Shown: positions 6,989 to 42,528 of the stretch, one piece after another | How the letters are laid out: the number at the start of each line of letters is the position of its first letter | Numbering within the stretch: the stretch's first letter is position 1 | Source: an uncultured Bacteroidota bacterium | GTDB lineage: Bacteria > Bacteroidota > Bacteroidia > Bacteroidales > JAAUTT01 | DNA: 64,000 nucleotides | NCBI GenBank assembly: GCA_963846585.1 | Contig: CAWJWO010000010.1 | Coordinates: 5,163 to 69,162, forward strand | Direction: 5' to 3' | Translations under genes and position numbers: made by a program | The notes under the pieces: generated by a model | Database searches by the model: none | What the model saw: only the letters and a program-made list of their open reading frames with translations | Told to the model about the DNA's origin: nothing

Positions 6989-7286
6989 ACTCTTTACTTT
7001 AATTGGCTTCCTGAGGTTTGGAGGCCATTATTTTTTATAATACTTATAAATACTAAGGTTTAAAATTAAAAATAAGGTTTAAATAATACATTAAGTTATA
7101 GATAAACTTTTAAAAGGTTGTATTATACTTCTGTCTTAACGTTGTAACACTTAAAATAAATATATTATGATCAAAATGCAGTTATAGCCCCTTTTTAAGG
7201 CATAGCCGTCAGGTTAATGTCTATATAGAGCAGAATGATAGATATTTAGTGTAAATGTAATAAAATATTAGTGTAATTAAGAGCGT

Positions 7287-7775
7287 ATGTCAACGACTGG
7301 ATTTGTATATATTATGACCAATAAGAACAAAACAAATTTATATATTGGGGTTACAAACAATTTATGCAGAAGAATACATGAGCATAAAAATCATTTGATA
7401 AATGACACTTTTACAGATAAGTACAATATTGAATACTGTATTTATTACGAAGAATTTCAATATTTTGAATTGGCAATACAAAGAGAAAAAGAATTAAAAA
7501 AGTGGAACCGTCAAAAGTTTATTTCGAGCGACGCGAGAAAACTCAAGATAAACAAAAAGAACCCCGAATGGAAAGTGCTGGTAACAGAGCGTGGCTTTGT
7601 TCGGAATAATAAATCATTTTCTCAACATGTTTCGGACATAGTCAATGAATTACAACCAATTAAAGAGATTCCTCCCTGCGGTCGGAATGACGACCAGCAG
7701 AATTGTGGCGTTGCGGGAGGTGAAGAGAGTGCGGCTTTGCCGCACTCTCTTCACCTCCCGCTCTCTGACCAATAA
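7287..7775 (+). CDS. GIY-YIG nuclease family protein (C-terminal ~50 aa encoded by palindromic repeat DNA)
   Basis: Motifs GFVYIMTN...LYIGVTNNLCRRIHEHKN...YYEEF...AIQREKELKKWNR...NPEWK match the small GIY-YIG proteins common in Bacteroidetes. The reading frame then runs into the nested palindrome at 7665-7807. Confidence 0.8.
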   Translation: MSTTGFVYIMTNKNKTNLYIGVTNNLCRRIHEHKNHLINDTFTDKYNIEYCIYYEEFQYFELAIQREKELKKWNRQKFISSDARKLKINKKNPEWKVLVTERGFVRNNKSFSQHVSDIVNELQPIKEIPPCGRNDDQQNCGVAGGEESAALPHSLHLPLSDQ

Positions 7776-7807
7776 CGACAGTCATTTCGAGCGAAGCGAG
7801 AAATCTC
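7665..7807. repeat. Nested palindromic module inside cassette copy A
   Basis: The imperfect outer arms are GAGATTCCTCCCTGCGGTCGGAATGAC (7665-7691) and GTCATTTCGAGCGAAGCGAGAAATCTC (7781-7807). They enclose a perfect 23-bp stem, GCGGGAGGTGAAGAGAGTGCGGC-TTT-GCCGCACTCTCTTCACCTCCCGC (7713-7761). Confidence 0.8.
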
Positions 7808-8005
7808 AAATAAAGTATTATAATTGTATATAAGCATTTTACAAGCGTTAACCTGACGGCTATGCTTTTTAAGGGGTTGGGGTTAAGCACATTACAATAT
7901 AAAATCAAATTACTAAAATTAAACTCCCATCACAATACTAATGGGTATCTCTAAAAACTCTCAAATTTGAAGCCCAACAAAGAAGTTGAAGTTTTAAGAG
8001 GTACC

Positions 8006-8617
8006 CTATTTTACTTTAAGCATATAATGATCAAAACAAGGTAAAGCCAAAACACTGGCAGGGGTGGCTTCAGGCCAGTTGGTAAAATATTTCAGCCATT
8101 CACTGCCATCTTTAAAATTATCGTAGAAATAGTGGTAATAATCATATGTTACCCATTCGCCACATATAAATCTCTTGGGATGTTCGTTCGGATTATCGGC
8201 TAGTATCCACCATTTTTTACCTGATAACTGATAAATCGCCTGAGCCACTATAAGCCTGAAAAACCCGTAACGGTGTTTTCCCAGGTTTGCGATGGTAAAC
8301 CGGCTAAGCAAGGTATCATTAACTTCAAATTGAGGACGTAATACCATTATCTGGCACCCTGTAATCGAAACATCAATTGTATTAGGTTCTAATCCTCCAG
8401 ATATGGCTTCAGCAACGTATACGGTATCGATATTTTTAAAACAAATACTCGCATGTGAATAGCTGGCTCTTTCAAAATCATCTATTATTTCCGATAAAAT
8501 TTCATGCCCGTGGTACAACAAAACATCCCCCGGACGAAGATCGGCAATTGTCAAAGTTTGTGCATTCATAATGATTATGTTTAATGAGAAAACAAATATG
8601 ATAAGTAAATTTTTCAT
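8006..8617 (-). CDS. Secreted permuted papain-fold (YiiX / NlpC-P60-like) peptidase, putative
   Basis: Signal peptide, then PGDVLLYHG...SHASI...VAEA and a later Cys (FICGEW). This arrangement resembles circularly permuted C40-like hydrolases. Assigned by motif resemblance only. Confidence 0.45.
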   Translation of the reverse strand: MKNLLIIFVFSLNIIIMNAQTLTIADLRPGDVLLYHGHEILSEIIDDFERASYSHASICFKNIDTVYVAEAISGGLEPNTIDVSITGCQIMVLRPQFEVNDTLLSRFTIANLGKHRYGFFRLIVAQAIYQLSGKKWWILADNPNEHPKRFICGEWVTYDYYHYFYDNFKDGSEWLKYFTNWPEATPASVLALPCFDHYMLKVK

Positions 8618-8814
8618 GATTGAGGTTTTGAAATTCCTATGACAAATATGTAAGATTTTTTGCTTTTATTTACTATTAATAATAATTTATGTGAATAAAT
8701 TGTTGAATTATTAATAAAATTTTTACCACAAAGGGACACTAAGTCAATCACTAAGGTACACAAAGGTGTTTGTTTATAAAGGTGAATCACTAAATAATGC
8801 TTCAAAGAAAATGC

Positions 8815-8937
8815 AATGTCAACTAAGAAAAAGCCAAATTCAAGGCTTGCGAAGTCATAAAAAGCGGAGTTTACTCAAAGTAAATGAGCATTTTATGACG
8901 AGCGTAACGAAGAAGTTGGCTTTTCCTTATTGACATT
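8815..8937 (-). repeat. Stop-codon-adjacent structured palindromic repeat, copy a
   Basis: Imperfect hairpin with conserved cores CTTCGTTACGCTC, CATTTACT-nnn-AGTAAACT and CTTCGCAAGCC (gene-sense strand). Lies 2 nt from the stop of the ABC exporter gene. Homologous to 16164-16285 and 62405-62535. Confidence 0.7.
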
Positions 8938-8939
8938 AA

Positions 8940-10706
8940 TTAGACGATCATGTTCATATTATAATATTTAGATTTATTTTCCATCAATTCTGCATGACTC
9001 CCGATTTCTGCAATCCTCCCTTTTTCAAGGAACATTATTCTGTCAGCTTTCCTGATTGTTGAAAGCCTGTGGGCAATTATAAATGTAGTTCTTCCTTTTA
9101 TTATATCAGCTATAGCATTTTGAATAGCTTTTTCCGATTCAACATCAAGAGATGAAGTGGCTTCATCGAAAATAATTATTTTAGGATCGCGGACCAGGGC
9201 CCTGGCGATGGCAATTCTCTGGCGCTGTCCTCCTGACAATCGGCTCCCGTGTTCGCCAATCATCGTGTCGTATCCATCAGGCAATTGAGTTGCAAATTCA
9301 TCTACCCTTGACATTTTTGCTATTGAAATAAATTTTTCTTCATTTACAGCATCTTCTTCTATTCCATATAAAATATTATCCCTTATTGATCCTGAGAATA
9401 AAATAATATTTTGCGGTACAACTGATAAAAACCGGCGGTATGTTCTCAAATCAAGTATATGCATATTAATGCCATCCAGCAAAACCGAACCACTCACGGG
9501 ATGAATATACCCGATTAACAAACTTACCAGTGTGGATTTGCCTGCACCGGATTCACCTACAATAGCAATACATTCACCGGGCTTTGTCTCAAAAGATATA
9601 TCATTTATTACTGTTTTTTCAGGAGTGTACTGGAATTTTACTTTATTAAACTGAATATGCCCATTAATATTATTTACTTTTTGTTTTCCTTCGTTCATCT
9701 CAATATCCGTACATTCCAGGATTTCTCCCAAGGAATGGATTGAATCAAAGCCCCTGTTTAAATCTGGTGAAATATTTATAATCATATTCACTGAATTAAT
9801 AATCATACCAAAAAATCCCTGGTACATTATTACGTCCCCGATTGCTATTTTACCTTTGTATGCCATATAAGCAGTAACCAATAAACATATGAACTGGAAA
9901 ACCTGGTAGGTTACCCAGGTTGATGCACCAAATACTGCATTAATAACATCGAGTTTTATCCCTTTTTCTTTAACCTTTGCAAATTGTCCGTTAAGTTGAT
10001 TAATTTCAGTTTCTTCAGCTCCATGTGCACGTGTGATGGTTATCATTTGTACCATGTCCGATACCCTTGCTGACATTATCTCTATCTGGCTTCTGTATTC
10101 ACTGTTTCCTTTAGCCATTCCTTTTTGGAAAATCCTGATAAGCAAAGTCGCCAACGGAATAGTAACCAAATAAAAGAGAGCAACCCAATAATTATGCATA
10201 ATTGTAGCTATCATCGCAAATATGATATTGAGTATTCCGGTAAAAACCACATTCACCATCTGGCGTGATAAAATTTCAATCGACTCAACATCACGCAATA
10301 CCTTTGACTGAAGGCGCCCCGATTCGAAATGGGTGTGAAAGGAGATAGTAAGTTCCTGCAATCTTTTAATTAATGAAAACCTCAAACTATTTTCAATTGA
10401 ACGATTTGCTTTACTTAAATATTTTATATAAAGAGTGTGTGTTATAATATTTTGAAAGTAAAGCACAGTGATCAAAACTGAATTAACTATAATTTTATGT
10501 AATGAGCCAGGGCCGTGAGATATTATTGCATTAATGACGTTACCAAGTATTATTGGCAGTATCATTGCAGGAGAATGCTTTATAGTAAGCAGGATGAGCG
10601 ATAATGTTATATTTTTCTTTTCATGAACATAAATTGATAAAAAGGCAAATATCTTGTTCTTCTTATTGAAATTGAGCTCATGAATTTTTTTTTCTTCAAT
10701 TTTCAT
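8940..10706 (-). CDS. ABC exporter, fused permease and ATPase (MsbA/type I exporter-like)
   Basis: Six-TM N-terminal half, Walker A GESGAGKST, signature LSGGQRQRIAIARAL, Walker B IIIFDEATSSLD. Confidence 0.9.
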   Translation of the reverse strand: MKIEEKKIHELNFNKKNKIFAFLSIYVHEKKNITLSLILLTIKHSPAMILPIILGNVINAIISHGPGSLHKIIVNSVLITVLYFQNIITHTLYIKYLSKANRSIENSLRFSLIKRLQELTISFHTHFESGRLQSKVLRDVESIEILSRQMVNVVFTGILNIIFAMIATIMHNYWVALFYLVTIPLATLLIRIFQKGMAKGNSEYRSQIEIMSARVSDMVQMITITRAHGAEETEINQLNGQFAKVKEKGIKLDVINAVFGASTWVTYQVFQFICLLVTAYMAYKGKIAIGDVIMYQGFFGMIINSVNMIINISPDLNRGFDSIHSLGEILECTDIEMNEGKQKVNNINGHIQFNKVKFQYTPEKTVINDISFETKPGECIAIVGESGAGKSTLVSLLIGYIHPVSGSVLLDGINMHILDLRTYRRFLSVVPQNIILFSGSIRDNILYGIEEDAVNEEKFISIAKMSRVDEFATQLPDGYDTMIGEHGSRLSGGQRQRIAIARALVRDPKIIIFDEATSSLDVESEKAIQNAIADIIKGRTTFIIAHRLSTIRKADRIMFLEKGRIAEIGSHAELMENKSKYYNMNMIV

Positions 10707-11605
10707 TTGGCATACTTAAAAATAAATGACAGAATTTCTTCCAACCCAGGGGCATTCAGTGTATGTGGCCTTGTAAGGCACACATTGGCGGCCACGGCCG
10801 AGGCAAATTCAATTGTTTTATAATCATCCCACTTTTGTATTAAACCATAAATAATACCTGCCCGAAATGAATCTCCTGCCCCTGTTGTGTCAACAGGAGT
10901 TATATTAAAAGGCTTAAAAACATTCATTGTACCTCCATTTCGTCCATACCATAGTTCATCGCTGCCAAAAGTAAAAACTATTAAACCCTTACAGTGTTCA
11001 ATATATGAAATAAATAATTCTTTGGGGTTACACTCCTTGTAATCTTTATTACGCAATTCATGTGAAATAATAACTGCTTCAGCATTTGTTCCCATAAAAC
11101 CATCATATTTGCAATCAAACGTTACATATGGCTTATGGTGTTTTATGCAAATGTGTGCAATATCTTCGGCTTCGGGACAAAAGTAAGGGTCAAGAGCTAC
11201 CATTGAGCAATTTACTATATCCTCCTCAAAAGGCGTATTCCATTGTTTTTCACCTGAGTGAAATTTAGCAAAATTTCCAAAAATGGTCCTTGTTGAGGTA
11301 TCGACAAGAACAATTTCTTCAGTGCCGAAATCTTCCCTGGTAGTTAACCGGGAGATATCAATATTAAAAGGTTTAAGTAAAGAAATGATTTTATTTTTAT
11401 TCCGGCTGTTTATCCAATTACCGTCAAGCTTTGTATTTATTCCTAGCTTGGATAGCATGATAGCGGTATTAACAGCCTCTCCACCGACCGAGTCGAGTAC
11501 TTCGCTTATTTCGGCATATTCATTTGGTTGTGGGAAACTAAATTTTTTATCAATTATATAAACTGTACTTGCAGTTATCATTCCATAATTAAAAACATAA
11601 CTCAT
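10703..11605 (-). CDS. PfkB-family carbohydrate/nucleoside kinase
   Basis: Ribokinase-fold motifs GGEAVNTAIMLSKLG and DTTGAGDSFRAG. Its stop overlaps the ABC exporter start by 4 nt. Confidence 0.85.
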   Translation of the reverse strand: MSYVFNYGMITASTVYIIDKKFSFPQPNEYAEISEVLDSVGGEAVNTAIMLSKLGINTKLDGNWINSRNKNKIISLLKPFNIDISRLTTREDFGTEEIVLVDTSTRTIFGNFAKFHSGEKQWNTPFEEDIVNCSMVALDPYFCPEAEDIAHICIKHHKPYVTFDCKYDGFMGTNAEAVIISHELRNKDYKECNPKELFISYIEHCKGLIVFTFGSDELWYGRNGGTMNVFKPFNITPVDTTGAGDSFRAGIIYGLIQKWDDYKTIEFASAVAANVCLTRPHTLNAPGLEEILSFIFKYAK

Positions 11606-11678
11606 AATCGCCTGCCTTTATAATATTATCTAATTATATTTCGTTAATTTGATTTCACTAATATAATATCTTTATTGT

Positions 11679-12563
11679 TTGTATGTAATCAAACTGAACC
11701 GAATGAAGCGAAGAATTTTAGTATTACTATTATCACAGGTATGTTTGTTACTCACTATTAAAGCTCAGGATTCGGTTTCACTTAAGCCCGGCAATTTATT
11801 TGGCATATACTCAGGATTAACTTACCATATACTTTCGGATGAGGCCATGTTCGATGACGTTTATTTTAACGGGCTGTTCGCCGCCCCTGTTTATATTAAT
11901 TACAGGTATTTTGGCAAAAGTACCAGGCAAACGTGTTCATTTTATTATGACCAGTTGAATCTGAATTCATCAAATGAGTATTTAACAAATCAGCTTACTG
12001 CAAATAATACAAATGCAATTTTGGATTATTCTTATAACCGATATATATTTTCAATTCCTCAGTACAAAATACAATGTTTTATTGGCGGGAAAATCCAAAG
12101 TCTGATTAATTACAGATTGTATTACGATTATCAATACGATCAAAACGAAGTGATGTTCGAGCAATTCACAACTTTAGGCTTTAACTTTATTGCTGAAAAA
12201 CGATTTTCAAAAAATAATGATATTTTAAGTTTAAACATTAGCATGCCTTTTGTTGCATACTCTTTGGTAAATAACGTATATAATCAATGGGTAAACTCTG
12301 TTTCACAAGAAATTCAAATAACGAACCAGACAAAAATCAGTTTTAATGATTTGTGGCAATTACTTAAAAACGGTGAATTAATATCATATAATAAATTAAT
12401 TGAATTTGAATCGGAAATTTCATATACAAAATTTGTGTCTAAACATATTGGTTTTGAATTAAATTACAGTATAATATTTTATTCTTTTGCACAATATTCG
12501 GATATTTTGTATTCAAAAAATTTAAACACAAGACTGTTGCTGGGCCTGGTAATTAAAAAATAG
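11679..12563 (+). CDS. Hypothetical secreted / outer-membrane protein
   Basis: Signal peptide MKRRILVLLLSQVCLLLTIKAQ (a start at 11703 is equally possible). Aromatic-rich alternating segments suggest a beta-barrel. No family recognised. Confidence 0.5.
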   Translation: MYVIKLNRMKRRILVLLLSQVCLLLTIKAQDSVSLKPGNLFGIYSGLTYHILSDEAMFDDVYFNGLFAAPVYINYRYFGKSTRQTCSFYYDQLNLNSSNEYLTNQLTANNTNAILDYSYNRYIFSIPQYKIQCFIGGKIQSLINYRLYYDYQYDQNEVMFEQFTTLGFNFIAEKRFSKNNDILSLNISMPFVAYSLVNNVYNQWVNSVSQEIQITNQTKISFNDLWQLLKNGELISYNKLIEFESEISYTKFVSKHIGFELNYSIIFYSFAQYSDILYSKNLNTRLLLGLVIKK

Positions 12564-12607
12564 TGCATAGTGCATAGTGCATAGTGCATAGTGCATAGTG
12601 CATAGTA
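12561..12607 (+). repeat. Tandem heptamer array (TAGTGCA) x6 plus a partial unit
   Basis: Read directly. The first TAG is the stop codon of the 11679-12563 ORF. Because the unit is 7 nt, TAG recurs in all three frames. Confidence 0.95.
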
Positions 12608-12748
12608 GATAATACATTAAATAGAATATATTGTTTTGCTTCTAAAAATTGCATGTAGGATCAAAATTTAAATAAATATTATAGATATTATTAACAAATA
12701 ATAACATTTAAGTTTTTACTAATATTTATGTTTATCAATAGGTACCAG

Positions 12749-12774
12749 GCACTAAGCACTATGCACTAAGCACT
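12749..12774 (-). repeat. Inverted partner array (GCACTAA/GCACTAT units) of the TAGTGCA family
   Basis: GCACTAAGCACTATGCACTAAGCACT is the reverse complement of TAGTGC(A/T)-type units. It lies 12 nt upstream of the S41 peptidase start. Confidence 0.9.
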
Positions 12775-12786
12775 TTATAAATTAAA

Positions 12787-13848
12787 ATGAAGCACATATT
12801 TGTTATAATAGCAATATCACTGATATCAGGGGGATGCAAAAAGACATTTACCGGGGAAAACCCTGAAAATACTCCTGTAAATAATTTTGAGATATTTTGG
12901 GCCGATTTTAATAATTATTATGCCCAGTTCGGTTTAAGGCACATTAACTGGGATTCAGTCTATAGTGTTTACAGCGGACAGGTTAATAATAATATGAGCG
13001 ATAAACAACTTTTTCATATCTTATCGCAAATGGTTTATATTATTAATGATATGCATGTTGATTTGGTTACGCCTTTAGGATATGTGCATTTTAAGAGTCC
13101 TTCCTATGGGAAGTATCCAAGCAGCAAAATTATTAACGGATGCAATTATGTAAAATGCAATACAGTAGAATACAATTCAATGGATAATATTTTTGGATTT
13201 TTAGGTTTCAGAAATTATAACCTGGGGTATATACTTATTAAATCATTTGAAGGGGAACCTGCTTCACTTTTAACCTTACCGGATTCGAGCTATAATTATA
13301 TTGATAATATATTAAATGAATATAAAAGTAAAGATGGATTAATAATTGATGTACGAAGTAATCCGGGTGGAGTTATCTTTAATGCTCAAGCAATTGCAAG
13401 TCGCTTTGCCGATAAAATGAGATTATACCAAAAATATTGTCTGAGAGATGGAACCGGAAGCAACGATTTTTCACAGTGGTATGATATGTACATATCTCCC
13501 GCCGGGCCATATCAATATTCCAAACCGGTGGTAGTTTTAACCAGCAGGGCAACCAGCAGCACTGCAGAATGTTTTGTTCTGGCTATGAAAACTTTTCCAC
13601 AGGTTACAATAGTTGGCGATACAACCGGAGGAGGGTTCGGGCTTCCGATAATCAGGGTTTTGCCTAATGGATGGACATACCGTATATCGACTGCCATAGG
13701 TGAATCTGTATCTGGCGAAGTTGTTGATAGTCATGGAATTTCACCTGATATTCCGGTGCAGACTTCCTTACAGGATTCTGTCCGGGGGATTGACAGAATC
13801 CTGGAAAAGGGGATTGAGACTGTAGAAAGTAAAATCGGGGCTAAATAG
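12787..13848 (+). CDS. S41-family serine peptidase (tail-specific protease-like lipoprotein)
   Basis: Lipobox-like ISGGC, then LIIDVRSNPGG, then SRATSSTAECFVLAMK (catalytic Ser region) and a GDTTGGG segment. Confidence 0.8.
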   Translation: MKHIFVIIAISLISGGCKKTFTGENPENTPVNNFEIFWADFNNYYAQFGLRHINWDSVYSVYSGQVNNNMSDKQLFHILSQMVYIINDMHVDLVTPLGYVHFKSPSYGKYPSSKIINGCNYVKCNTVEYNSMDNIFGFLGFRNYNLGYILIKSFEGEPASLLTLPDSSYNYIDNILNEYKSKDGLIIDVRSNPGGVIFNAQAIASRFADKMRLYQKYCLRDGTGSNDFSQWYDMYISPAGPYQYSKPVVVLTSRATSSTAECFVLAMKTFPQVTIVGDTTGGGFGLPIIRVLPNGWTYRISTAIGESVSGEVVDSHGISPDIPVQTSLQDSVRGIDRILEKGIETVESKIGAK

Positions 13849-14075
13849 AACCAGGAACCAAGAGCCAGGAACCAAGACAGAAGGCAGAAAGGGATGTGAG
13901 ACGTGAGAAGAGACGAAAGATAATAGAAGAAAGATGAAAGAAGACAGAAGACAGAAGACAGAGGACAGAAAGCAGAAGACAGAAGATAATTGTGATGTAT
14001 TTAATATTCAATATTCTATATTCAATATTCATTCATTTTACCTTCCCTACTTCCCTACTTTCCTACTTATCTACT
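13848..14075. repeat. Composite mosaic of short-word arrays
   Basis: Successive arrays: GAACCAGGAACCAAGAGCCAGGAACCAAGAC, then GAAGACA/GAAGGCA heptamers, then TATTCAATATTC units, then CCCTACTT/CCTACTTA units. Starts at the S41 stop codon. Confidence 0.85.
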
Positions 14076-15064
14076 TATTTTCCTTAGTATTCATTTCCTT
14101 TTCCTGCAAAAAAGAATCTACAAGTCCAAAGTGGAATACATATATAACAACCGACGGTATATATAATTTTAATGATATTACTTCCATTGTTATCGATTCT
14201 ATTGGCAATAAATGGTTTGGAACTGTAGGGGGAGGTGTGTCTAAATTTGACGGCTCGGAGTGGACTACATATAATACTGCCAACAGTGGTTTGGTGAACA
14301 ATTGGGTTAATGCAATAGCATTGGATTCACTGAAACATTTCTGGTTTGGAACTATTGGAGGGGGCATATCAGAATTTGATGGGGTTAACTGGAACATTTA
14401 TTCTGTTGAAAATTCTAACAATGGACTGGCAAGCAATAATGTAGTTTGCATTGCTATAGATTCAAAAGGAATAAAATGGTTTGGATGTCCGCAGGTTTTG
14501 AACGATAGTATTGTTACAGGTGGGGGAGTATCAAAGTTTGATGGGAAAAACTGGACCAAATATACACCTTCGAATAGTGGTTTGCTGGATGACAGGGTTA
14601 TATCGATAGCAACAGATGCCAAAGGAAACAAATGGTTTGGCACATATAAAGGTATATCGGAGTTTGACAATACTAACTGGACCTCGTATGCATATTCCTC
14701 AGTGCAACAAAATTTAGCTGGTCCTTTGGTTTACAGCATAGCAATTGATGCACATGGGGATAAATGGTTTGGCACATCAGGCGGGGTATCAGAATTTAAT
14801 GGTACTACCTGGACTAATTACACATATACAAGTACTAATCAGGTTTTGGCAAAAAAGGCTGTCACAATTATAACAATTGATAATCAAGGAAATAAATGGA
14901 TTGGAACGTGGGGTGGCGGATTATTCAGATTCGATGGCAAATACTGGACAACATATACCACTGGCAATGGCCTGGTAAATAATTATGTTCAGGCCATTGC
15001 ATTGGATGTTCAGGGTGATATCTGGATTGGTACCTATTACGGGATATCCGAATTATTTAAATAA
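13934..15064 (+). CDS. Beta-propeller protein with two-component-regulator-propeller (Reg_prop-like) repeats; true start uncertain
   Basis: Seven or more repeats of the form GGGVSKFDGxxWTxYxxxNSGLxxNxVxxIAxDxxGNKWFGT. The first ~35 codons (MKEDRRQKTEDRKQKTED...) are translated from the word arrays and are probably not coding. A lipoprotein-like LVFISFSC segment follows. Confidence 0.7.
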   Translation: MKEDRRQKTEDRKQKTEDNCDVFNIQYSIFNIHSFYLPYFPTFLLIYLFSLVFISFSCKKESTSPKWNTYITTDGIYNFNDITSIVIDSIGNKWFGTVGGGVSKFDGSEWTTYNTANSGLVNNWVNAIALDSLKHFWFGTIGGGISEFDGVNWNIYSVENSNNGLASNNVVCIAIDSKGIKWFGCPQVLNDSIVTGGGVSKFDGKNWTKYTPSNSGLLDDRVISIATDAKGNKWFGTYKGISEFDNTNWTSYAYSSVQQNLAGPLVYSIAIDAHGDKWFGTSGGVSEFNGTTWTNYTYTSTNQVLAKKAVTIITIDNQGNKWIGTWGGGLFRFDGKYWTTYTTGNGLVNNYVQAIALDVQGDIWIGTYYGISELFK

Positions 15065-15100
15065 TATTACTTCTCTCTCTTATATAACTAGTTACTCAAT

Positions 15101-15132
15101 AGAGCCAGGAACCAAGATCCAGGAACCAAGAC
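15101..15132 (+). repeat. CCAGGAACCAAGA-family repeat, direct copy
   Basis: AGAGCCAGGAACCAAGATCCAGGAACCAAGAC, in the same orientation as 13848-13878. Confidence 0.9.
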
Positions 15133-15312: not shown

Positions 15313-15326
15313 TCTTTTTTCTTCTT

Positions 15327-32550: not shown

Positions 32551-32584
32551 ATACAGATTAAAAATTCTTTATAAAATTTATAAA

Positions 32585-34038: not shown

Positions 34039-36816
34039 ATGTCCAAGATAATTAAAATTTTGTTTTCTTTCCGTCTTATGGCTTTATTGCTTAGTGTTTT
34101 TGCAATTTCAATTGCTATTGCCACTATAATAGAAAGCAAATATGATACTTCAACTGCCAGGGCAATGGTATATAATTCCCTGTGGTTTGAATTAGTTTTA
34201 CTTTTTGCATTTATAAATCTTTGTGGTATTATATTTTCAACAAGGATGCACGATAAAAAAAAGTTACCTGTTTTTATTTTTCACCTGGCATTGTTGTTGA
34301 TTCTTGTTGGCGCAGCAACTACAAGATTTTTCGGGAAAGATGGTTATATGCACATACGTGAGGGTGAATCGTCCAATAAAATTATTACCAACGATGTTTT
34401 CTTTTGTGCCACAGCCAGGCATAATGGCCAGGAAGCATATACTGATAAACTTGTTTATTTTTCAACCCCGGGGAATAATTGCCATAAGCTTAAGTTAACG
34501 CCTGCAGGTCAGAAAGTACTGATTGAGTTCCTTGAGTATATTCCAAATAATATGCATTCCGGCTCTATGAGTAAAACAGAAAGCGTTATACCTGGGGAAA
34601 TCTCTGATTCAGTACTTTTAAGAATTATTGCAGGTGGCGAGACAAAAACGATTTGGTACCATGCTCAACCCGAAGGTTTAAACAAGCCGCAATTAATAAA
34701 AGTTGCAAAAACTGAAATTGTTGTTTCAATAGGAGCCAAAATTATTGAATTGCCATTTTCCTTACAATTAAAAAAATTTATTCTTGAACATTATCCTGGG
34801 ACAGAAAGCCCGTCATGGTTTGAAAGTAAGGTTTTATTGATTGATAAATTAAATAGTATAAAAGAAGATCACCGCATTTATATGAATAATATTCTTACAT
34901 ATAATGGTTATAGATTTTTTCAATCATCTTATGATTCGGATGAACATGGAACAATACTGTCAGTAAACTATGATTATTGGGGAACACTTATTTCCTATGC
35001 AGGTTACTTTCTACTCTTAATTGGCATTTTGTTAAGTTTCATCAACCCTGGCAGCCGTTTGCGTGTACTATACAGGGAAATAGGGTCGAATAAAGCCGCA
35101 AAAGTTATATCGATAGCATTATTAATAACAATAATGTGTTTTGGAAGTACAATTAATATTAAAGCTGATAATAAATTATCCGACAGTACTGCTATTGACA
35201 GGACCCAGGCTGCTAATTTCGGAGAATTGCTGGTTCAGGATCATGGTGGAAGGATTAAACCTGTTAATTCTTTAAGTTCGGAATTAATCAGAAAAGTCAC
35301 CTATTCAAATTCATTTACAGGTTTATCAAACGATCAGGTTTTGCTTGGTATGATGGCGTTTCCTGAATATTGGCAGCGGATACCTATGATAAGGGTATCG
35401 GATTTTGAGATTAAAAAAATCCTTCATATTTCTGATAATTATGTTTCATTTTTGGATGTACTAAATATTACTCAAAATACACAAGAGTATTTGCTTGAAC
35501 CATATGTGAATATTGCTTATCAGAAACAACCTGCCAGACGTACTAAATTCGATAATGATATAATAAAGGTTGATGAACGGATAAACCTTTGCTATCAGAT
35601 TTATACAGGTGAGTTATTACATATTTTCCCAAAGAAAAATGATCCGCAAAAAAAATGGTATACTCCTGTAAATGCTGCATCTTCATTTCAAGGCAGCGAT
35701 TCAGTATTTACAACTATAATCCTGCCAATGTATTTGCGTTCAGTTAAAGATGCCGTAAAATCAAAGAATTGGGTAAAATCAGATGAGGTTCTGGTTATTC
35801 TTAAAGATTATCAAAAGAAATACGGTTATGATATTATTCCTTCTGAAACTAAAATTAAACTTGAAATAATTTACAACCGGCTGGATATTTTCCAGCGACT
35901 GAGTGCTTTTTATGGATTAGCCGGATTTATATTGCTTATTTTCGGTTTTATGACAGTTTTTTTACAAAAGCTGAAGCTGAAGTTAATTGTTAAGGTATCA
36001 GTTATTCTTTTAATATTATGTTTCATTGTACAGGGTGCTGGGTTAATAGTCAGATGGTATATTTCAGGTCATGCACCCTGGAGCAATGCATACGAATCAA
36101 TGGTATATATCTCATTTGCTACTGTATTTGCCGGCATTCTGTTTTCAAAGAAATCGGTTATAATATTGGCAGCAGCGGCAATACTTGCCTCATTAATTTT
36201 ATTTGTAGCCCATCTCAACTGGATGGATCCTGAAATCACAAACCTTGTACCAGTGCTAAAATCATACTGGCTATTGATTCATGTGGCCGTTATTACGGCG
36301 AGTTATGGATTTTTAGGACTGGGGGCACTGCTTGCTTTGATCAATTTAGTAATTATGATTTTCAGGAATAAAACAAATGGAGTCAAAACGTCGGAAATTA
36401 TCAATAAGCTCACATTAATTATTGAAATTATTCTGATCATTGGCCTGTATATGCTCACCATCGGGACTTTCCTGGGAGGTGTTTGGGCAAACGAGTCGTG
36501 GGGGCATTACTGGAGTTGGGATCCAAAGGAAACCTGGGCACTGGTATCTATTCTTGTGTATGCAATTATAGCCCATATGCGTTTAATACCTGGATTAAAA
36601 GGAATTTTCACTTTTAACATGTCAGCTTTATTGGGTTTTAGTTCGGTAATTATGACATATTTTGGTGTTAATTATTACCTTACAGGACTTCATTCCTATG
36701 CAAAAGGAGATCCCGCACCAATTCCGTCATCGGTTTATTATACTCTTATTATTGTTGCTTCCATATGTTTTATGGCATGGTGGAAACAAAATAAATTTGA
36801 AAATTTGAAAAAATGA
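34039..36816 (+). CDS. ccsBA: Fused system II cytochrome c biogenesis protein CcsB(ResB)-CcsA
   Basis: ResB-like N-terminal half with a large periplasmic region. The C-terminal CcsA half carries the WWD motif WGHYWSWDPKETWA and conserved His residues. Confidence 0.85.
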   Translation: MSKIIKILFSFRLMALLLSVFAISIAIATIIESKYDTSTARAMVYNSLWFELVLLFAFINLCGIIFSTRMHDKKKLPVFIFHLALLLILVGAATTRFFGKDGYMHIREGESSNKIITNDVFFCATARHNGQEAYTDKLVYFSTPGNNCHKLKLTPAGQKVLIEFLEYIPNNMHSGSMSKTESVIPGEISDSVLLRIIAGGETKTIWYHAQPEGLNKPQLIKVAKTEIVVSIGAKIIELPFSLQLKKFILEHYPGTESPSWFESKVLLIDKLNSIKEDHRIYMNNILTYNGYRFFQSSYDSDEHGTILSVNYDYWGTLISYAGYFLLLIGILLSFINPGSRLRVLYREIGSNKAAKVISIALLITIMCFGSTINIKADNKLSDSTAIDRTQAANFGELLVQDHGGRIKPVNSLSSELIRKVTYSNSFTGLSNDQVLLGMMAFPEYWQRIPMIRVSDFEIKKILHISDNYVSFLDVLNITQNTQEYLLEPYVNIAYQKQPARRTKFDNDIIKVDERINLCYQIYTGELLHIFPKKNDPQKKWYTPVNAASSFQGSDSVFTTIILPMYLRSVKDAVKSKNWVKSDEVLVILKDYQKKYGYDIIPSETKIKLEIIYNRLDIFQRLSAFYGLAGFILLIFGFMTVFLQKLKLKLIVKVSVILLILCFIVQGAGLIVRWYISGHAPWSNAYESMVYISFATVFAGILFSKKSVIILAAAAILASLILFVAHLNWMDPEITNLVPVLKSYWLLIHVAVITASYGFLGLGALLALINLVIMIFRNKTNGVKTSEIINKLTLIIEIILIIGLYMLTIGTFLGGVWANESWGHYWSWDPKETWALVSILVYAIIAHMRLIPGLKGIFTFNMSALLGFSSVIMTYFGVNYYLTGLHSYAKGDPAPIPSSVYYTLIIVASICFMAWWKQNKFENLKK

Positions 36817-38093
36817 AAATACTTTATTACGATTGCTTTTCAGGAATCAGTGGTGATATGAACCTTGGTGCAATGGTCGATTTAGGAGTAGATCCATCCT
36901 TTTTAACTGAGGAATTAAAAAAATTAAATTTACAGGGGTATACTATTTCTTTTAAAATTGACAAACGAAAAGGAATTACCGGCACCAGAGCGGATATAGT
37001 TATTAATGAGACAATCCCGCCAACAATAAATTCAGGTACCAACACAATAACAGAACATTCACATTCGCACGATCAGGCACATTCTCACGCGCACAACCAC
37101 ATTCATTTACATCATCCTGTTCAACAACCTGAACGAAATTTTTTTTCCATTAAGGATTTAATCGAAAAGAGTACTTTAAGCGATGAAGTTAAATTGATGA
37201 GTATTGAAATTTTTAAAAAAATTGCTATCGCTGAGGCACATGTTCACGGGAAAACATTGGAAGAAATCCATTTTCATGAAGTCGGTGCACTTGATTCAAT
37301 TATTGATATAGTAGGTGCAGCAATATGCTATAATTACTTAAAACCTGATAAAGTGGTTTCTTCTCCGGTTGAAATGGGAGGAGGTACGGTTAAGTGTGCT
37401 CATGGAATATTTCCGGTACCTGCACCTGCATCCCTGGAGATATTAAAAGGCAAGCCAATCCGCATTGGGGCGGTACCAGTTGAAGCTACCACACCCACAG
37501 GTGCTGCAATTATATCAACATTTGCAGATGATTTTATTGAAAAGATTGATTTTAAAATAATTAAAATAGGTTATGGCATAGGGTACCGTGATAATGAAAT
37601 TCCGAACGTATTAAGGGTATGTTATGCAGAATTAATTGGCAAAGATAACGAAGAACAAGCTGCCATGATAGAATGTAACATCGATGACATGAACCCTGAA
37701 ATTTATGAATATGTAATGGAAAGGCTCTTTAATGCAGGGGCTGATGATGTATTCTTTCAACCTATTGTTATGAAAAAAACAAGACCGGCAACAAAAATAA
37801 GTGTTCTCTGCAAGCAATCAGTGAGCCAACAAATAAAAAATATTCTATTCACTGAAACTTCAACACTGGGTTTAAGGGAGTACCTTGTTCACAAAACGAG
37901 CCTGCAACGTAACCGGAAAATTATTGAAACACGTTGGGGGAAAGTAAATATTAAGCAGGGAATATTTAATGATAAAGTAATAAAATCTAAACCTGAATAT
38001 GAGGATTGTTTAAAAATATCACTTGAAAATAATATTCCTTTGAATGATGTTTATAATGAAGTTTTTAAAATTAACAATCAATTAAACAATTAA
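36813..38093 (+). CDS. larC: Nickel-pincer cofactor nickel insertase LarC (DUF111)
   Basis: N-terminus MKILYYDCFSGISGDMNLGAMVDLGV, a His-rich tract HSHSHDQAHSHAHNHIHLHH, and FHEVGALDSIIDIVG. Its start overlaps the ccsBA stop (ATGA). Confidence 0.9.
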   Translation: MKILYYDCFSGISGDMNLGAMVDLGVDPSFLTEELKKLNLQGYTISFKIDKRKGITGTRADIVINETIPPTINSGTNTITEHSHSHDQAHSHAHNHIHLHHPVQQPERNFFSIKDLIEKSTLSDEVKLMSIEIFKKIAIAEAHVHGKTLEEIHFHEVGALDSIIDIVGAAICYNYLKPDKVVSSPVEMGGGTVKCAHGIFPVPAPASLEILKGKPIRIGAVPVEATTPTGAAIISTFADDFIEKIDFKIIKIGYGIGYRDNEIPNVLRVCYAELIGKDNEEQAAMIECNIDDMNPEIYEYVMERLFNAGADDVFFQPIVMKKTRPATKISVLCKQSVSQQIKNILFTETSTLGLREYLVHKTSLQRNRKIIETRWGKVNIKQGIFNDKVIKSKPEYEDCLKISLENNIPLNDVYNEVFKINNQLNN

Positions 38094-38153
38094 TTATCTT
38101 TAATCCTATAAATCTTAATTTAATCCTAAAAATCCTAATTAAATCCTAATTTA

Positions 38154-38900
38154 ATGTTGCCGGAAGATATTAGAAAAATATTAGAAAATGTTAAGGCTGG
38201 GTCATTAACAATAGACAAAGCATTCAGCCAGTTACGTGATCTTCCATTTGAAGATGTTGGATTTGCTAAAATTGATCATCACCGGCAATTGCGTACCGGG
38301 TATCCTGAAGTGATCTATTGTCCCGGAAAAACTATTGATCAAATTATCCGAATTATTGAAATGATTCAAAAAAAGGGTAACAATATCCTGGCTACCAGAG
38401 CATCCGATGAGATATATCATAGGGTGGCTGAAATATTTTTTACAGCGGAATACAATCCGGTTGCCAGGGCCATTGTTATTAAACAGAAAGAAATACCAAC
38501 TCCCGATACATATATATGCATTGTCACAGCCGGTACTGCCGACATACCTGTGGCTGAAGAAGCATGTGTAACCGCCGAAATTTTCGGCAATAGGGTGGAA
38601 CGTGTTTATGATGTCGGTATAGCCGGTATACATCGCCTGTATAATAACCTGGATATTATAGGAAATGCCAGGGTTATAGTTGGCATTGCAGGTATGGAAG
38701 GTGCTTTGCCTGGTGTCCTGGGCGGATTGGTTGACAAACCAATTATCGCAGTACCCACCAGCGTGGGATATGGTGCTAATTTTCATGGCCTGTCTTCACT
38801 ATTGACCATGTTAAATACATGTGCTTCAGGAGTAAGTGTTGTAAATATAGACAACGGATTTGGAGCCGGATATCTGGCAAGTATGATAAATAAAATTTAA
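38154..38900 (+). CDS. larB: Nickel-pincer cofactor biosynthesis protein LarB (PurE-like carboxylase/hydrolase)
   Basis: AKIDHHRQLRTGYPEVIY, then a PurE-like core IVTAGTADIPVAEEA...IAGMEGALPGVLGGL. Confidence 0.88.
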   Translation: MLPEDIRKILENVKAGSLTIDKAFSQLRDLPFEDVGFAKIDHHRQLRTGYPEVIYCPGKTIDQIIRIIEMIQKKGNNILATRASDEIYHRVAEIFFTAEYNPVARAIVIKQKEIPTPDTYICIVTAGTADIPVAEEACVTAEIFGNRVERVYDVGIAGIHRLYNNLDIIGNARVIVGIAGMEGALPGVLGGLVDKPIIAVPTSVGYGANFHGLSSLLTMLNTCASGVSVVNIDNGFGAGYLASMINKI

Positions 38901-38929
38901 ACAAAAGGTGCCCAGAAATAAAACAGACT

Positions 38930-39604
38930 ATGCATATTCCGGATGGATATTTAAGCCCTCAAACCTACGTGCCTTTATATATTGTCTTCATTGTATTTAT
39001 TGGTAAGGCTATTAAAAAAGTTAAAAAGAAACTTACTACAAAAACAATCCCTTTCCTGGGAATGTCGGCAGCTTTTTCTTTTCTCATAATGATGATTAAC
39101 ATTCCTATACCTGGGGGTACTACCGGCCATGCCGTAGGTTCTGCACTAATCGCCTTACTCTTTGGCCCTTGGGTGGCAATTGTTTCTGTTTCAGTTGCTT
39201 TAATAATACAGGCTTTTGTCTTTGGTGATGGTGGTATTACAGCTATTGGTGCCAATTGTTTTAATATGGCAATTGTGATGCCTTTTATTGCGTATGGTGT
39301 TTTTAAACTAATAAATAATAATTCGGTTAACCAGAAGCGAATGAATATTGCAGCTTTCTTTGCCGGATATATTAGTATATGTTTTGCTGCATTAATCACT
39401 GCATGTGAAATTGGAATTCAGCCTATGGTTGCATCCTTGTCTGACGGAACACCACTATATGCACCCTATCCTCTTAAAATTGCAATTCCTGCCATGGTTT
39501 TGGAACATCTGGTGCTTTTTGGCATTGTTGAAGGTTTAATCACAGCATTAGTTTTCAGGTATTTTTATAATTCCCATAAAGAGGTCATTGAAGTTTTAGG
39601 ATAG
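38930..39604 (+). CDS. cbiM: ECF-type Ni/Co transporter substrate-capture component CbiM/NikM
   Basis: The N-terminus MHIPDGYLSP is diagnostic. Has six TM helices and is followed by N-, Q- and O-type components. Confidence 0.9.
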   Translation: MHIPDGYLSPQTYVPLYIVFIVFIGKAIKKVKKKLTTKTIPFLGMSAAFSFLIMMINIPIPGGTTGHAVGSALIALLFGPWVAIVSVSVALIIQAFVFGDGGITAIGANCFNMAIVMPFIAYGVFKLINNNSVNQKRMNIAAFFAGYISICFAALITACEIGIQPMVASLSDGTPLYAPYPLKIAIPAMVLEHLVLFGIVEGLITALVFRYFYNSHKEVIEVLG

Positions 39605-39607
39605 ACA

Positions 39608-39940
39608 ATGAACAAATTAAAAAAAAATATAGGAATAGGTTTATTGGTATTAGCACTTATATCTCCAATTGGCATACTCCTGCCAAAATGGCTCCATGCA
39701 GGCGATGCATGGGGAGAGTGGCCAACCGGCAAAGTAAAAAAGGATATTGGATATGTACCAAAAGGAATGAAAAAAAATGCCGGAATATGGAAAGCACCAA
39801 TGCCAGATTATAGCAATGGGAAAGAAAATAATTCACTACTTTCAGGGTCTGCATATTACCTTCTTTCAGGTTTTGCCGGTGCAGGAATAATCTCGCTGGC
39901 AACCTGGGGGCTGTTTAAAATTTATCAAAAACATGAATAA
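39608..39940 (+). CDS. Small CbiN/NikN-like (PDGLE-type) accessory membrane component
   Basis: 110 aa with TM helices at both ends and a GDAWGEWP segment. Positioned between cbiM and cbiQ. Confidence 0.5.
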   Translation: MNKLKKNIGIGLLVLALISPIGILLPKWLHAGDAWGEWPTGKVKKDIGYVPKGMKKNAGIWKAPMPDYSNGKENNSLLSGSAYYLLSGFAGAGIISLATWGLFKIYQKHE

Positions 39941-40859
39941 CGGGTTACCTTCCTTTTTACTTAAAAACGAAATTCGTTTAACAAAGCCCCACGTTAAGAA
40001 AAAGCATTCATTATCATTTATTGACCTTACTATCAAGTCAATTGCCAACATAATAAAAATCGTTTATATCCAAAGTGATACAGCAGGCAGAAAAGGATTT
40101 TTACAACAATTGGATGCCCGGGTAAAGGCTATTTTTTTATTTTTCTTTATCATAATAATCAGTTTGAACAGGCAGGTTTCATCACAGCTTTTAATTACAG
40201 CTTTCTTTTTTGTTTTGCTCGTCTTTTCAAACATAAACCTTGTTTTTGTCTATACAAAGGTGTTTGTTTTAAGTTTCTTTTTTGGATTTTTAATAATCGC
40301 TCCGGCAGCTTTAAATATTGTTAATAATGGTGAAATTATTGCAAAAATATTTCAATTTAAAAACAGCCATTCGTTTTGGATTTATCATGTTCCGGCAGTT
40401 ATTGGCATCACAAAGGAGGGATTTTGGGCAGTTCTGAGGTTTTATTTTAAAGTAGCCAATTCATTAACATTAACCCTCTTAATTATTTATACAACCCCAT
40501 TTAATGATATTATAAAGTCGTTGAAAATATTCCGCATCCCAAATATGTTGTTATTAGTGTTAACCCTGACCTACAAATTTATATTTATTCTATCACAAAC
40601 TACTGAGGAAACCTATTTTGCCATGAAATCGAGGTGGTGGATAAACACCGGAGAATCTCATGCCAACCGGATAATTGCAGGCAGAATTACCCACATTTTT
40701 CGTAAATCGTGGATTAAATATGAAGAAATATATAGGGCTATGTTGGCAAGAGGATATACAGGTACTGTCAGCGTTATTTATACAGGAAAAATAAAATGGC
40801 AGGACTTAACTTTTATGTTTTTTTTTCTTAGCATAGGTGTTCTATGCTATTTTATATAA
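39933..40859 (+). CDS. cbiQ: ECF transporter transmembrane (T) component CbiQ
   Basis: Multi-TM protein with the conserved ARG-type C-terminal motif region (AMKSRWW, MLARGY). Positioned before the ATPase. Confidence 0.75.
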   Translation: MNNGLPSFLLKNEIRLTKPHVKKKHSLSFIDLTIKSIANIIKIVYIQSDTAGRKGFLQQLDARVKAIFLFFFIIIISLNRQVSSQLLITAFFFVLLVFSNINLVFVYTKVFVLSFFFGFLIIAPAALNIVNNGEIIAKIFQFKNSHSFWIYHVPAVIGITKEGFWAVLRFYFKVANSLTLTLLIIYTTPFNDIIKSLKIFRIPNMLLLVLTLTYKFIFILSQTTEETYFAMKSRWWINTGESHANRIIAGRITHIFRKSWIKYEEIYRAMLARGYTGTVSVIYTGKIKWQDLTFMFFFLSIGVLCYFI

Positions 40860-40863
40860 ACGT

Positions 40864-41676
40864 ATGGAAGATATTATTAAGTTTGAAAATATTAACTATA
40901 GTTATATTCATAGACATTGCGCTCTTTGTGATGTCAATTTTACAGTGAAGCAGGGAGAAATTTTATCAATTATCGGGTCAAACGGTTCAGGTAAATCAAC
41001 CTTGTTACATCTCATGAGTGGCCTTTTGTTTCCCGATAGTGGCAAAATATATTTCAAGGGAGATTCTATCACAGAAGATTCCCTGAAAAAACAATCCTTT
41101 AACAGCTATTTTAGAGAAAGTATCGGCTACGTGTTTCAGAATTCTGATAATCAATTGTTTTGTCCAACAGTACTGGATGAGTTGATTTTTGCACCTTTAC
41201 AAATGGGTATTCGTAACGATATGGCTTTTGAACGGGCCGAATCTGTCATGAAAATGTTAAACATTGAAAATCTAAGTGATCGACCTACATACATGCTTTC
41301 AGGAGGTGAAAAAAAAAGAGTCGCCATTGGGTCTATACTTACAATTAATCCGGAGGTATTATTGTTTGATGAGCCAGTTAGCGGGCTCGATCCGAAAAAC
41401 CGGGCATTTTTAATTGAACTTATTTTTCAATTGAACGAAACCGGTAAAACGATTATTATCACAACTCATCACCTCGAACTGGTTGACCATTTTCAGTCGC
41501 GTGTCGCCGTGCTTTCCGAGCAACATCATATTGAAAAAATCGGTAATGCTGAGGAAATTCTAACCAATACAGATTTGCTAATCAAAACAAACCTTATACA
41601 CGAACAATTGCACCGTCATGGTAATATAAGCCATAAGCACCTGCCTGCCAATTTTTTATTTCATAAGCATGAATGA
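40864..41676 (+). CDS. cbiO: ECF transporter ATPase CbiO
   Basis: Walker A GSNGSGKST, signature LSGGEKKRVAIG, Walker B LLFDEPVSGLD. I prefer the ATG at 40864 (MEDIIKF); the ORF track's upstream ATG at 40837 would overlap cbiQ. Confidence 0.88.
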   Translation: MEDIIKFENINYSYIHRHCALCDVNFTVKQGEILSIIGSNGSGKSTLLHLMSGLLFPDSGKIYFKGDSITEDSLKKQSFNSYFRESIGYVFQNSDNQLFCPTVLDELIFAPLQMGIRNDMAFERAESVMKMLNIENLSDRPTYMLSGGEKKRVAIGSILTINPEVLLFDEPVSGLDPKNRAFLIELIFQLNETGKTIIITTHHLELVDHFQSRVAVLSEQHHIEKIGNAEEILTNTDLLIKTNLIHEQLHRHGNISHKHLPANFLFHKHE

Positions 41677-41815
41677 TTTTGTAGTTAATTAACCTTAGTT
41701 TGATTTAAATAATCAGATTTTTATACTGTAATTTATTTAACCCCAACCCCTTAAAAAGCATAGCCGTCAGGTTAACGCTTGTAAAATGCTTATATACAAT
41801 TATAATACTTTATTT

Positions 41816-41958
41816 GAGATTTCTCGCTTCGCTCGAAATGACTGTCGTTATTGGTCAGAGAGCGGGAGGTGAAGAGAGTGCGGGTTTGCCGCACTCTCTT
41901 CACCTCCCGCAACGCCAGAATTCTGCTGGTCGTCATTCCGACCGCAGGGAGGAATCTC
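41816..41958. repeat. Nested palindromic module inside cassette copy B
   Basis: Same architecture as 7665-7807. The central hairpin at 41862-41910 has a 22-bp stem and loop GTTTG. Confidence 0.8.
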
Positions 41959-42336
41959 TTTAATTGGTTGTAATTCATTGACTATGTCCGAAACATGTTG
42001 AGAAAATGATTTATTATTCCGAACAAAGCCACGCTCTGTTGCCAGCACTTTCCATTCGGGGTTCTTTTTGTTTATATTGAGTTTTCTCGCGTCGCTCGAA
42101 ATAAACTTTTGACGGTTCCACTTTTTTAATTCTTTTTCTCTTTGTATTGCCAAATCAAAATATTGAAATTCTTCGTGATAAATACAGTATTCAATATTGT
42201 ACTTATCTGTAAAAGTGTCATTTATCAAATGATTTTTATGCTCATGTATTCTTCTGCATAAATTGTTTGTAACCCCAATATATAAAGTTGTTTTGTTCTT
42301 ATTGGTCATAATATATACAAATCCAGTCGTTGACAT
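41848..42336 (-). CDS. GIY-YIG nuclease family protein, second copy
   Basis: 162 aa, differing from the 7287-7775 product at seven positions (N17T, Y54H, E61D, K87N, V98A, C139S, L150N). Confidence 0.8.
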   Translation of the reverse strand: MSTTGFVYIMTNKNKTTLYIGVTNNLCRRIHEHKNHLINDTFTDKYNIEYCIYHEEFQYFDLAIQREKELKKWNRQKFISSDARKLNINKKNPEWKVLATERGFVRNNKSFSQHVSDIVNELQPIKEIPPCGRNDDQQNSGVAGGEESAANPHSLHLPLSDQ

Positions 42337-42528
42337 ACGCTCTTAATTACACTAATATTTTATTACATTTACACTAAATATCTATCATTCTGCTCTATAT
42401 AGACATTAACCTGACGGCTATGCCTTAAAAAGGGGCTATAACTTTTATCCAATCAAAGTATTAGTTTACCTGGTAGCATTAGTCGGAATCAATTAATAAA
42501 AAATTTGACTTTTTAAATCGAACTTATG

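Follow-up and report, generated by a model that had tools for sequence, protein, structure and literature searches.

The window analysed here (64 kb of contig CAWJWO010000010.1, from an uncultured Bacteroidota bacterium) contains a single long inverted repeat pair, which a repeat search placed at 7180-7904 and 41719-42443 (725 nt, 98%), and chance cannot account for a repeat of ~700 nt at that identity. A preliminary description of the window had reported two inverted, reverse-complementary 707-bp copies of a GIY-YIG gene cassette, free of indels, on either side of a 33.8-kb gene block. We confirm this: 7180-7886 differs from the reverse complement of 41737-42443 by 10 substitutions and no indels over 707 nt (98.6% identity), and each arm has an open reading frame (ORF) of 162 aa, the two proteins differing at 7 residues. 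The substitutions lie at 7336, 7446, 7469, 7547, 7582, 7705 and 7736-7739; four of the ten are the flipped loop of an internal palindrome, and all six single substitutions are non-synonymous.

Each arm contains a discrete 664-bp unit, the cassette, between perfect 17-bp terminal inverted repeats (TIRs) CATAGCCGTCAGGTTAA, a core with 4 exact matches in the window where 0.18 are expected. The TIRs are flanked directly by a 10-bp direct repeat, CTTTTTAAGG, not only in the two window copies but also in copies at three other loci (L205, L210 and L212). The interior consists of a 69-nt leader, the ORF, two hairpin motifs, a third, degenerate motif and a 49-nt perfect palindrome (7713-7761, predicted dG -32.9 kcal/mol). 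The GIY-YIG gene is the only sizeable ORF, and there is no transposase inside. The hairpin motif has the form GTCATTYC-N-GRAATC, with 4 matches in the 64 kb, all inside the two cassettes, and 0.03 expected; the third, degenerate version is an in-frame 18-nt insertion in the ORF at 7522-7540. The arms are longer than the cassette, sharing ~21 nt and ~22 nt beyond its ends, because each cassette lies inside a target sequence, T, at the end of a host miniature inverted-repeat transposable element (MITE), and the host-MITE body adjoining the cassette explains a further ~45 nt of ~75% similarity on one side. An Rfam scan of 6800-8100 at a permissive threshold returned only spurious microRNA matches on the 49-nt palindrome and a weak tmRNA-like match on a nearby tRNA relic. 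The features of the two copies are as follows.

7180-7200, plus strand: left copy, outer flank; tip of the modified terminal repeat T of the host MITE (AGT/TATAGCCCC) and direct repeat CTTTTTAAGG (7191-7200); this flank is common to all copies
7201-7217, plus strand: left copy, left TIR core CATAGCCGTCAGGTTAA; the same 17-mer ends IS4-family elements and MITEs elsewhere
7287-7775, plus strand: left copy, 162-aa ORF of Ssn-type GIY-YIG; catalytic domain at residues 5-76
7667-7691, minus strand: SRM-like hairpin motif GTCATTCCGACCGCAGGGAGGAATC, sharing CGTCATTCC...GGAATCY with the Neisseria NTS consensus (PMC11893778)
7713-7761, no strand: 49-nt perfect palindrome; 3-nt loop TTT here, AAA in other copies
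7781-7805, plus strand: SRM-like hairpin motif GTCATTTCGAGCGAAGCGAGAAATC
7848-7864, minus strand: left copy, right TIR core
7865-7886, plus strand: left copy, right direct repeat CTTTTTAAGG (7865-7874) and inner half of T (GGTTGGGGTTAA)
41737-41758, minus strand: right copy, inner half of T and direct repeat (41749-41758)
41759-42422, minus strand: right copy, 664-bp cassette; TIR cores 41759-41775 and 42406-42422
41818-41842 and 41932-41956: right copy, SRM-like motifs
41848-42336, minus strand: right copy, ORF of 162 aa
41862-41910: right copy, palindrome
42423-42443, minus strand: right copy, direct repeat (42423-42432) and tip of T

We read each 707-bp repeat as one insertion of a 664-bp non-autonomous element of the IS4 family, of the mobile insertion cassette type, which carries an Ssn-type gene and is nested in the end of a host MITE, and we read the block between the two copies as native; we give this reading a probability of about 80%. 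An inverted pair of this kind is an ordinary outcome for a multi-copy mobile element.

IS4-type ends and a preferred target

IS4-family insertion sequences (ISs) have CA or CAT tips and make duplications of ~10 bp, about one helical turn, and in the IS231 subgroup there are cassettes (MIC231) in which passenger genes replace the transposase (PMC2266710). When the 17-bp TIR of the window element is set against the IS231-type consensus CAT-------AA--TAA (PMC2266710, Table 1), 7 of the 8 positions agree. A scan for the 17-mer over 185,579 species genomes gave at least 119 loci, where by our own arithmetic roughly 70 matches would be expected by chance; the matches listed are nonetheless non-random, being concentrated in Bacteroidota, one Caldithrix metagenome-assembled genome (MAG) and Legionella MAGs. 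For at least 54 strand-specific matches (~47 distinct elements), an inverted second copy with no more than 3 mismatches lies within 5 kb, mostly at a spacing of 130-420 nt and often with 8-10-bp flanking duplications, which is the structure of MITEs.

Some of the elements bounded by the 17-mer encode transposases: those at L023, L089 and L101 have proteins of 437-448 aa. The L023 and L089 proteins match PF01609 (E 1e-24 to 1e-26) and visibly carry the IS4 YREK signature (Y..RWQIE..FK), and L023 scores 199 bits against NF033592 (transpos_IS4_1; cutoff 115). L101 is linked to these two by 33-37% tblastn identity, and the assignment of both L101 and L029 is one of tblastn similarity (31-37%); at L029 a partial transposase copy lies beside the 17-mer, and its subterminal sequence is the closest to the window's. 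The 17-mer CATAGCCGTCAGGTTAA is thus found exactly conserved at the ends of IS4 elements whose transposases share only 31-37% identity, as well as in MITEs of Bacteroidota, of the Caldithrix MAG (more than 12 contigs) and of Legionella MAGs. Such conservation of the ends across phyla is unusually strict.

The pairing of these ends with a nuclease gene is confined to the window's lineage: tblastn found no GIY-YIG gene beside the 17-mer among the 119 matches listed, and the TIR, allowing 3 mismatches, is absent from all 80 of the metagenome loci encoding nuclease homologues. The window element is therefore a lineage-specific capture of a nuclease gene between IS4-type ends.

The cassette occupies at least eight loci in the species, namely the two in the window and L205/L206, L208, L209/L210, L211, L212/L213 and L214; the L214 copy is decayed, and all intact copies are 664 bp long. 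A ninth cassette, L215, with 78% protein identity, was found in a different metagenome. At the protein level, a 90%-identity cluster has 24 members on many long contigs of one sample set. With the left window copy set aside, the copies differ from one another at 2-5 positions; between the left copy and the others there are 7-10 differences. Among six fully aligned copies (7201-7864; L206, L208, L210 and L212 included), 12 of 12 variable sites fall within the ORF span and none in the non-coding ends of 86 nt and 89 nt, so that the ends look more constrained than the protein.

Every copy occupies the same ~33-nt sequence, T = AGT/TATAGCCCC-(CTTTTTAAGG)-GGTTGGGGTTAA, and the cassette may have either orientation relative to it. 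It sits at the centre of a GC-armed palindrome, CCCCTT-TTT-AAGGGG, within T. What T is can be judged from an empty unit at L215, a ~150-nt element with T at one end and a near-canonical TIR (TTAACTTAACGGCTATG) at the other; L210 has the same arrangement, and the bodies of the L215 and L210 units can be aligned with the DNA next to each of the window copies, as well as with the empty allele of L003 described below. Comparison of the canonical terminal repeat, CATAGCC-GTCA-GGTTAA, with T, TATAGCC-CC(N8)GGGGTTGG-GGTTAA, suggests that T is a modified version of such a repeat, at the end of a ~150-nt host MITE belonging to the same terminal-repeat family as the cassette. We also considered T as a free, high-copy REP and rejected this, given that the window has no extra copies and that T is a modified host-MITE end. 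The preference for T is deduced from nine occupied and two empty sites, and both empty sites have an imperfect centre (...TTAATGGG).

Palindrome centres of 3 nt flip among the copies: TTT and AAA alternate at 7736-7738 and 41885-41887, and TTTTTAA and TTAAAAA alternate in the duplication at the L208 and L211 junctions. This suggests template switching within hairpins.

The preliminary description had taken the repeats to be copies of a mobile element, and the TIRs, the direct repeats, the number of loci (at least eight) and the presence/absence polymorphism described below all support it. As to how the element would move, we infer that an IS4-family DDE transposase, supplied in trans, recognises the shared ends and moves the cassette by cut-and-paste transposition, which would leave the 10-bp target duplication. 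Such a transposase would have a strong preference for the palindromic centre of T, perhaps because it binds this TIR-like sequence. The two window copies are, on our reading, independent insertions, inverted by happenstance.

The empty site and the chromosomal block

For comparison we used European Nucleotide Archive (ENA) metagenome contigs retrieved by exact-protein look-ups, which are 99.9-99.99% identical to the window; they include Contig_27617 of ERZ25039501 (161.8 kb) and further contigs from ERZ25039473. The right copy has the same context, between a TonB-dependent receptor gene and cbiO, in L001, L002 and L207, which represent three samples. L003 and L004, which represent two samples, follow window 20706-7963 collinearly and differ from it at one or two positions. 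At the place of the left copy they have an empty site, ...AGTTATAGCCCCGTTTTAATGGGTTGGGGTTAAGCAC..., which joins window position 7198 to 7867 and so lacks the 664 bp together with one of the direct-repeat copies. Further left they carry a complete tRNA-Ala(GGC) gene, then TonB_C, HflX, RecO and DXS, where the window has only the 3' 45 nt of tRNA-Ala(GGC), followed by an integrase and IS21. L001 and L003 lie on one 161.8-kb contig, and their coordinates fit a single collinear block within 8 nt.

3161-5481: IS21 istA/istB pair; 77-nt inverted ends at 3016-3092 and 5498-5574
5489-6781, minus strand: tyrosine integrase of the island
6945-6989, plus strand: 3' 45 nt of tRNA-Ala(GGC), attachment-site relic of the integrase island; outside the cassette, but marks its context on the left
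7887-7965, plus strand: host-MITE body and decayed far end; ~75% identity to its counterpart at the right copy; the empty-site allele has it too
7887-41736, no strand: native block, 33.8 kb; ABC transporter, PfkB, S41 peptidase, GH1, CheR/CheB/PP2C/SiaC cluster, UbiA, ResB/CcsA, LarC/LarB, CbiMNQO
41655-41736, minus strand: host-MITE body beside the right copy; outer limit approximate

The enclosed gene content is as previously described (two CheR, CheB, PP2C/SpoIIE, SiaC, ResB/CcsA, LarC/LarB with their Ni_insertion and AIRC domains, and CbiMNQO), and the integrase, the IS21 and the tRNA relic directly to the left of the left copy are real. What does not stand is the proposal that the block is a composite element, mobilised jointly by its two cassettes, or that it was delivered as a unit with the integrase/IS21 island. 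In its favour, two like elements bracket the block and the integrase island abuts the left copy; against it, in near-identical strains that have neither the left copy nor the island, the block lies at the same position and runs in the same direction, so neither the cassettes nor the island delivered it. Relatives thus carry the same genes in the absence of the left cassette, which agrees in part with a result that the preliminary description had named as refuting its proposal; the right cassette is still present there. The composition also matches: the tetranucleotide comparison it had proposed gave a correlation of 0.991 between the block and its right flank, and 0.987 between the two halves of the block, so that the block is as close to its flank as its halves are to each other. 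The gene content is chromosomal, and no mobility genes were seen among the block's contents, which concern signalling, transport, cofactors and carbohydrate metabolism. The 33.8-kb block is native chromosome, outside any mobile unit, and we regard joint mobilisation or unit delivery as very improbable.

An assembly artefact, in the form of a collapsed or misplaced repeat, was the other way in which the pair might have proved illusory, and it has some a priori appeal for multi-copy repeats in a sequence from a MAG. The copies, however, differ from each other at 10 positions, the left one having private variants; the right junction recurs in three independent assemblies; and the flanks of the left copy are collinear with the empty site. 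The flanks of each copy are syntenic with assemblies made independently of the window's, and we consider an artefact scarcely credible.

Four sets of observations weigh against a simple version of our reading. The first concerns the duplication: both CTTTTTAAGG copies differ at 2 positions from the empty-site allele, CGTTTTAATGG, with immediate flanks that are identical, and this difference is not what a simple recent insertion predicts. Second, the left copy is the most divergent of all, which argues against a recent jump from any sampled copy; its polymorphism is compatible with gain, with loss or with import together with the adjacent island, and these cannot be told apart. Third, a search of the window and of ~60 kb of same-species loci turned up no IS4 transposase that has these ends, and none of 120 IS4 database matches was attributable to this MAG set, so the cassette can be called only putatively mobile at present. 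Finally, L208 and L211 carry the GGGGTTGGGGTTAA half of T on both sides of the cassette.

These last flanks bear on a further alternative, namely that RecA-dependent recombination between the inverted 707-bp copies flips the 33.8-kb block, and that both orientations coexist. Inverted copies of 707 bp at 98.6% identity are in principle a competent substrate for homologous recombination, and the flank combinations at L208 and L211 could stem from exchange between copies. They are explained equally well by a palindromic target variant, and we have downgraded the L208 flanks as proof of inversion between copies, since L211 shows the same pattern and the 3-nt palindrome centres flip among copies. 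More directly, the sequences on either side of the left copy adjoin each other in the empty allele, so that the window and the strain without this copy share one orientation, with no inversion between them. The right junction is identical in three assemblies, and the window and the contigs of three samples all show a single orientation. The repeats have no invertase gene next to them, their neighbours being a C92-like amidase, CbiO and a TonB-dependent receptor, and the sole nearby recombinase (5489-6781) belongs to the tRNA island. We therefore think an invertible segment unlikely.

The left junction may have a history of its own. Five mismatches lie close together at 6990-7035, next to the tRNA relic, and over the following 12.7 kb there is one; a 133-nt stretch of L003 (12745-12877) is missing from the window at 7963-7967, at the decayed far end of the host MITE. 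The divergence of the left copy, the island, this indel and the mismatch cluster all lie within ~1 kb, a stretch that may be an import from a related lineage and not the site of a recent jump. To regard the whole left junction as a diverged recombination tract is only partly tenable, as the mismatches are clustered at 6990-7035 and 7036-7192 is identical.

Window positions 1-6989 are the end of an integrative island in tRNA-Ala(GGC), absent from the near-identical strains, which also carries a hybrid histidine-kinase/receiver gene. Exact-sequence look-ups of the ORF at 8006-8617 and of the integrase returned no match, for which a different start-codon call is a possible cause. The window also contains many intergenic tandem arrays of 7-9-nt units (12560-12606, 13925-13986, 47915-47970, 54463-54506, 58036-58214 and others), with examples such as ATAGTGC x6.7, AGAAGAC x8.9, ACTATGC x7.7 and GTTTATAAG x7.9, and the same heptamers occur beside the cassettes at L205 and L211.

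The Ssn-type gene and known systems

Residues 5-76 of both 162-aa ORFs match the Pfam GIY-YIG model PF01541 (E 1e-15); Pfam gives one further match, to T5orf172, over this same stretch. The catalytic columns Y8, Y19, R28 and E67 are invariant in an alignment of homologues, of which there are 790 at E <= 1e-5. The conserved core of the family, ~120-130 aa, consists of the GIY-YIG domain and a C-terminal extension; in the window protein this extension is conserved to about residue 120 and is followed by a tail translated from the hairpin repeats. A PDB sequence search with the 162-aa protein found no match, and neither did an exact-sequence look-up of the left-copy protein. The in-frame 18-nt hairpin insertion (7522-7540; 42083-42101) gives K-FISSDARKL-N where relatives have K-KEDL-I, and it occurs otherwise only in a 91%-identical protein, P0002.

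The Ssn family comprises small single-domain GIY-YIG proteins (CDD cd10448) that cut only single-stranded DNA (ssDNA) next to hairpin repeats (Chenal et al. 2025, PMC11893778). The associated repeat, called NTS in Neisseria (CGTCATTCCCGCGMAVGCGGGAATCYRG) and SRM in general, usually flanks the gene, and the authors point out that the NTS-ssnA-NTS layout resembles an insertion sequence (PMC11893778). Of the 80 homologue loci, 21 have an NTS next to the gene that departs from the consensus at no more than 4 positions, and at several loci NTS copies in inverted orientation lie on both sides. The SRM-like motifs of the window carry the CGTCATTCC and GGAATCY arms of the NTS and lie within 110 nt of the 3' part of the gene or inside it. 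On the strength of these shared arms and of the NTS beside homologous genes, we assign the cassette ORF as a putative Ssn-family nuclease, with nuclease activity predicted from its family. Among L125-L204, many metagenomic homologues are bracketed by inverted NTS-like hairpins (for example L141, L157, L160 and L197), and at L204 four tandem NTS-like hairpins with 52-nt spacing lie downstream of the nuclease gene.

A GIY-YIG gene in a recurrent target might also spread as homing genes do: the nuclease would cut an empty T and the cassette would be copied from an occupied T by repair, the TIR and the direct repeat being incidental. Consistent with this, all eight copies, and one in a distant relative, occupy the same ~33-nt sequence, and the duplication is identical in every occupied site but unlike both empty sites, as co-conversion of the donor flanks would give. 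On the other hand, the junctions show the TIR and the ~10-bp duplication expected of IS4 transposition, and the orientation of the cassette relative to T varies, contrary to what homology-directed copying would yield. No part of the ORF is recognisable as a DNA-binding domain, and its match to the group I intron endonuclease model TIGR01453, at 24 bits, falls below the cutoff of 56. Moreover, the Ssn enzymes that have been characterised cleave ssDNA only, beside SRM hairpins (PMC11893778), and T is no such hairpin. Homing-like spread seems to us improbable, slightly more so than inversion of the block.

The cassette could be a self-interested partnership in which an Ssn ssDNA nuclease, packaged between IS4 ends, aids the spread or retention of the cassette: it might cut hairpins exposed as ssDNA at the MITE target or in the internal palindrome, or alternatively it might restrict incoming DNA that lacks the cassette. 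We hold this idea only tentatively and think it improbable; if true, it would be the first evidence of Ssn/SRM modules acting as mobile selfish elements and not as domesticated host genes.

Whatever the passenger does, the chemotaxis-like, cytochrome-assembly and cobalt-transport block is core chromosome and not cargo, with no sign of flipping. An ssn-like gene truly lies inside transposon ends here, in at least eight copies that are polymorphic between near-identical strains, and the cassette offers a concrete system in which the selfishness of Ssn/SRM modules can be tested, for a family described only in 2025. With it, the range of IS4-type cassettes that carry passengers also reaches past the Bacillus cereus group, in this case with a target preference that is strict for a related MITE's end.

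MIC231 and IS231 of the Bacillus cereus group, members of the IS4 family, share with the window element its short length, IS4-family inverted repeats (CAT...TAA), a ~10-bp duplication, a passenger gene in place of a transposase and a presumed movement in trans (cited in PMC2266710). Unlike MIC231, the present cassette has a low-GC host in the Bacteroidota, a placement to which the named relatives of the host's proteins and of the terminal repeat also point, its passenger is a nuclease with hairpin repeats of its own, and it always lies in the modified end of a related MITE; its mobilisation in trans is hypothetical, and no partner IS was found in the sequence examined. Relative to IS231 itself, the related transposases match the NCBIfam model transpos_IS4_1, which is a resemblance at the level of the IS4 family. 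With the Ssn family the cassette shares a small GIY-YIG protein and SRM-like hairpins, and homologues 44-56% identical to it have a near-canonical NTS on either side. At 162 aa, the protein exceeds the 94 aa of the Neisseria Ssn (PMC11893778); the family core is ~120-130 aa, and the protein has a conserved C-terminal extension. Unlike in other Ssn systems, the SRM-like motifs are found only inside the cassettes and not dispersed through the 64-kb window, and the gene, whose activity is predicted, is multi-copy and lies between transposon ends.

Some insertion sequences target repeats or their own ends, as do REP-targeting ISs and IS30, which targets inverted repeats. The window element resembles these in its strong preference for one short, repeated palindromic target, and differs from them in that the target is the modified terminal repeat of a MITE with the same family of ends. 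The combination of a single small nuclease gene with hairpin repeats recalls REP/RAYT systems (the REPtron), a parallel discussed by the Ssn authors (PMC11893778), although the nuclease here is of the GIY-YIG and not the HUH superfamily and the end repeats are IS4-type TIRs, not hairpins. The closest precedents are thus the IS231/MIC231 mobile insertion cassettes for the element and the Ssn nuclease family for its passenger.

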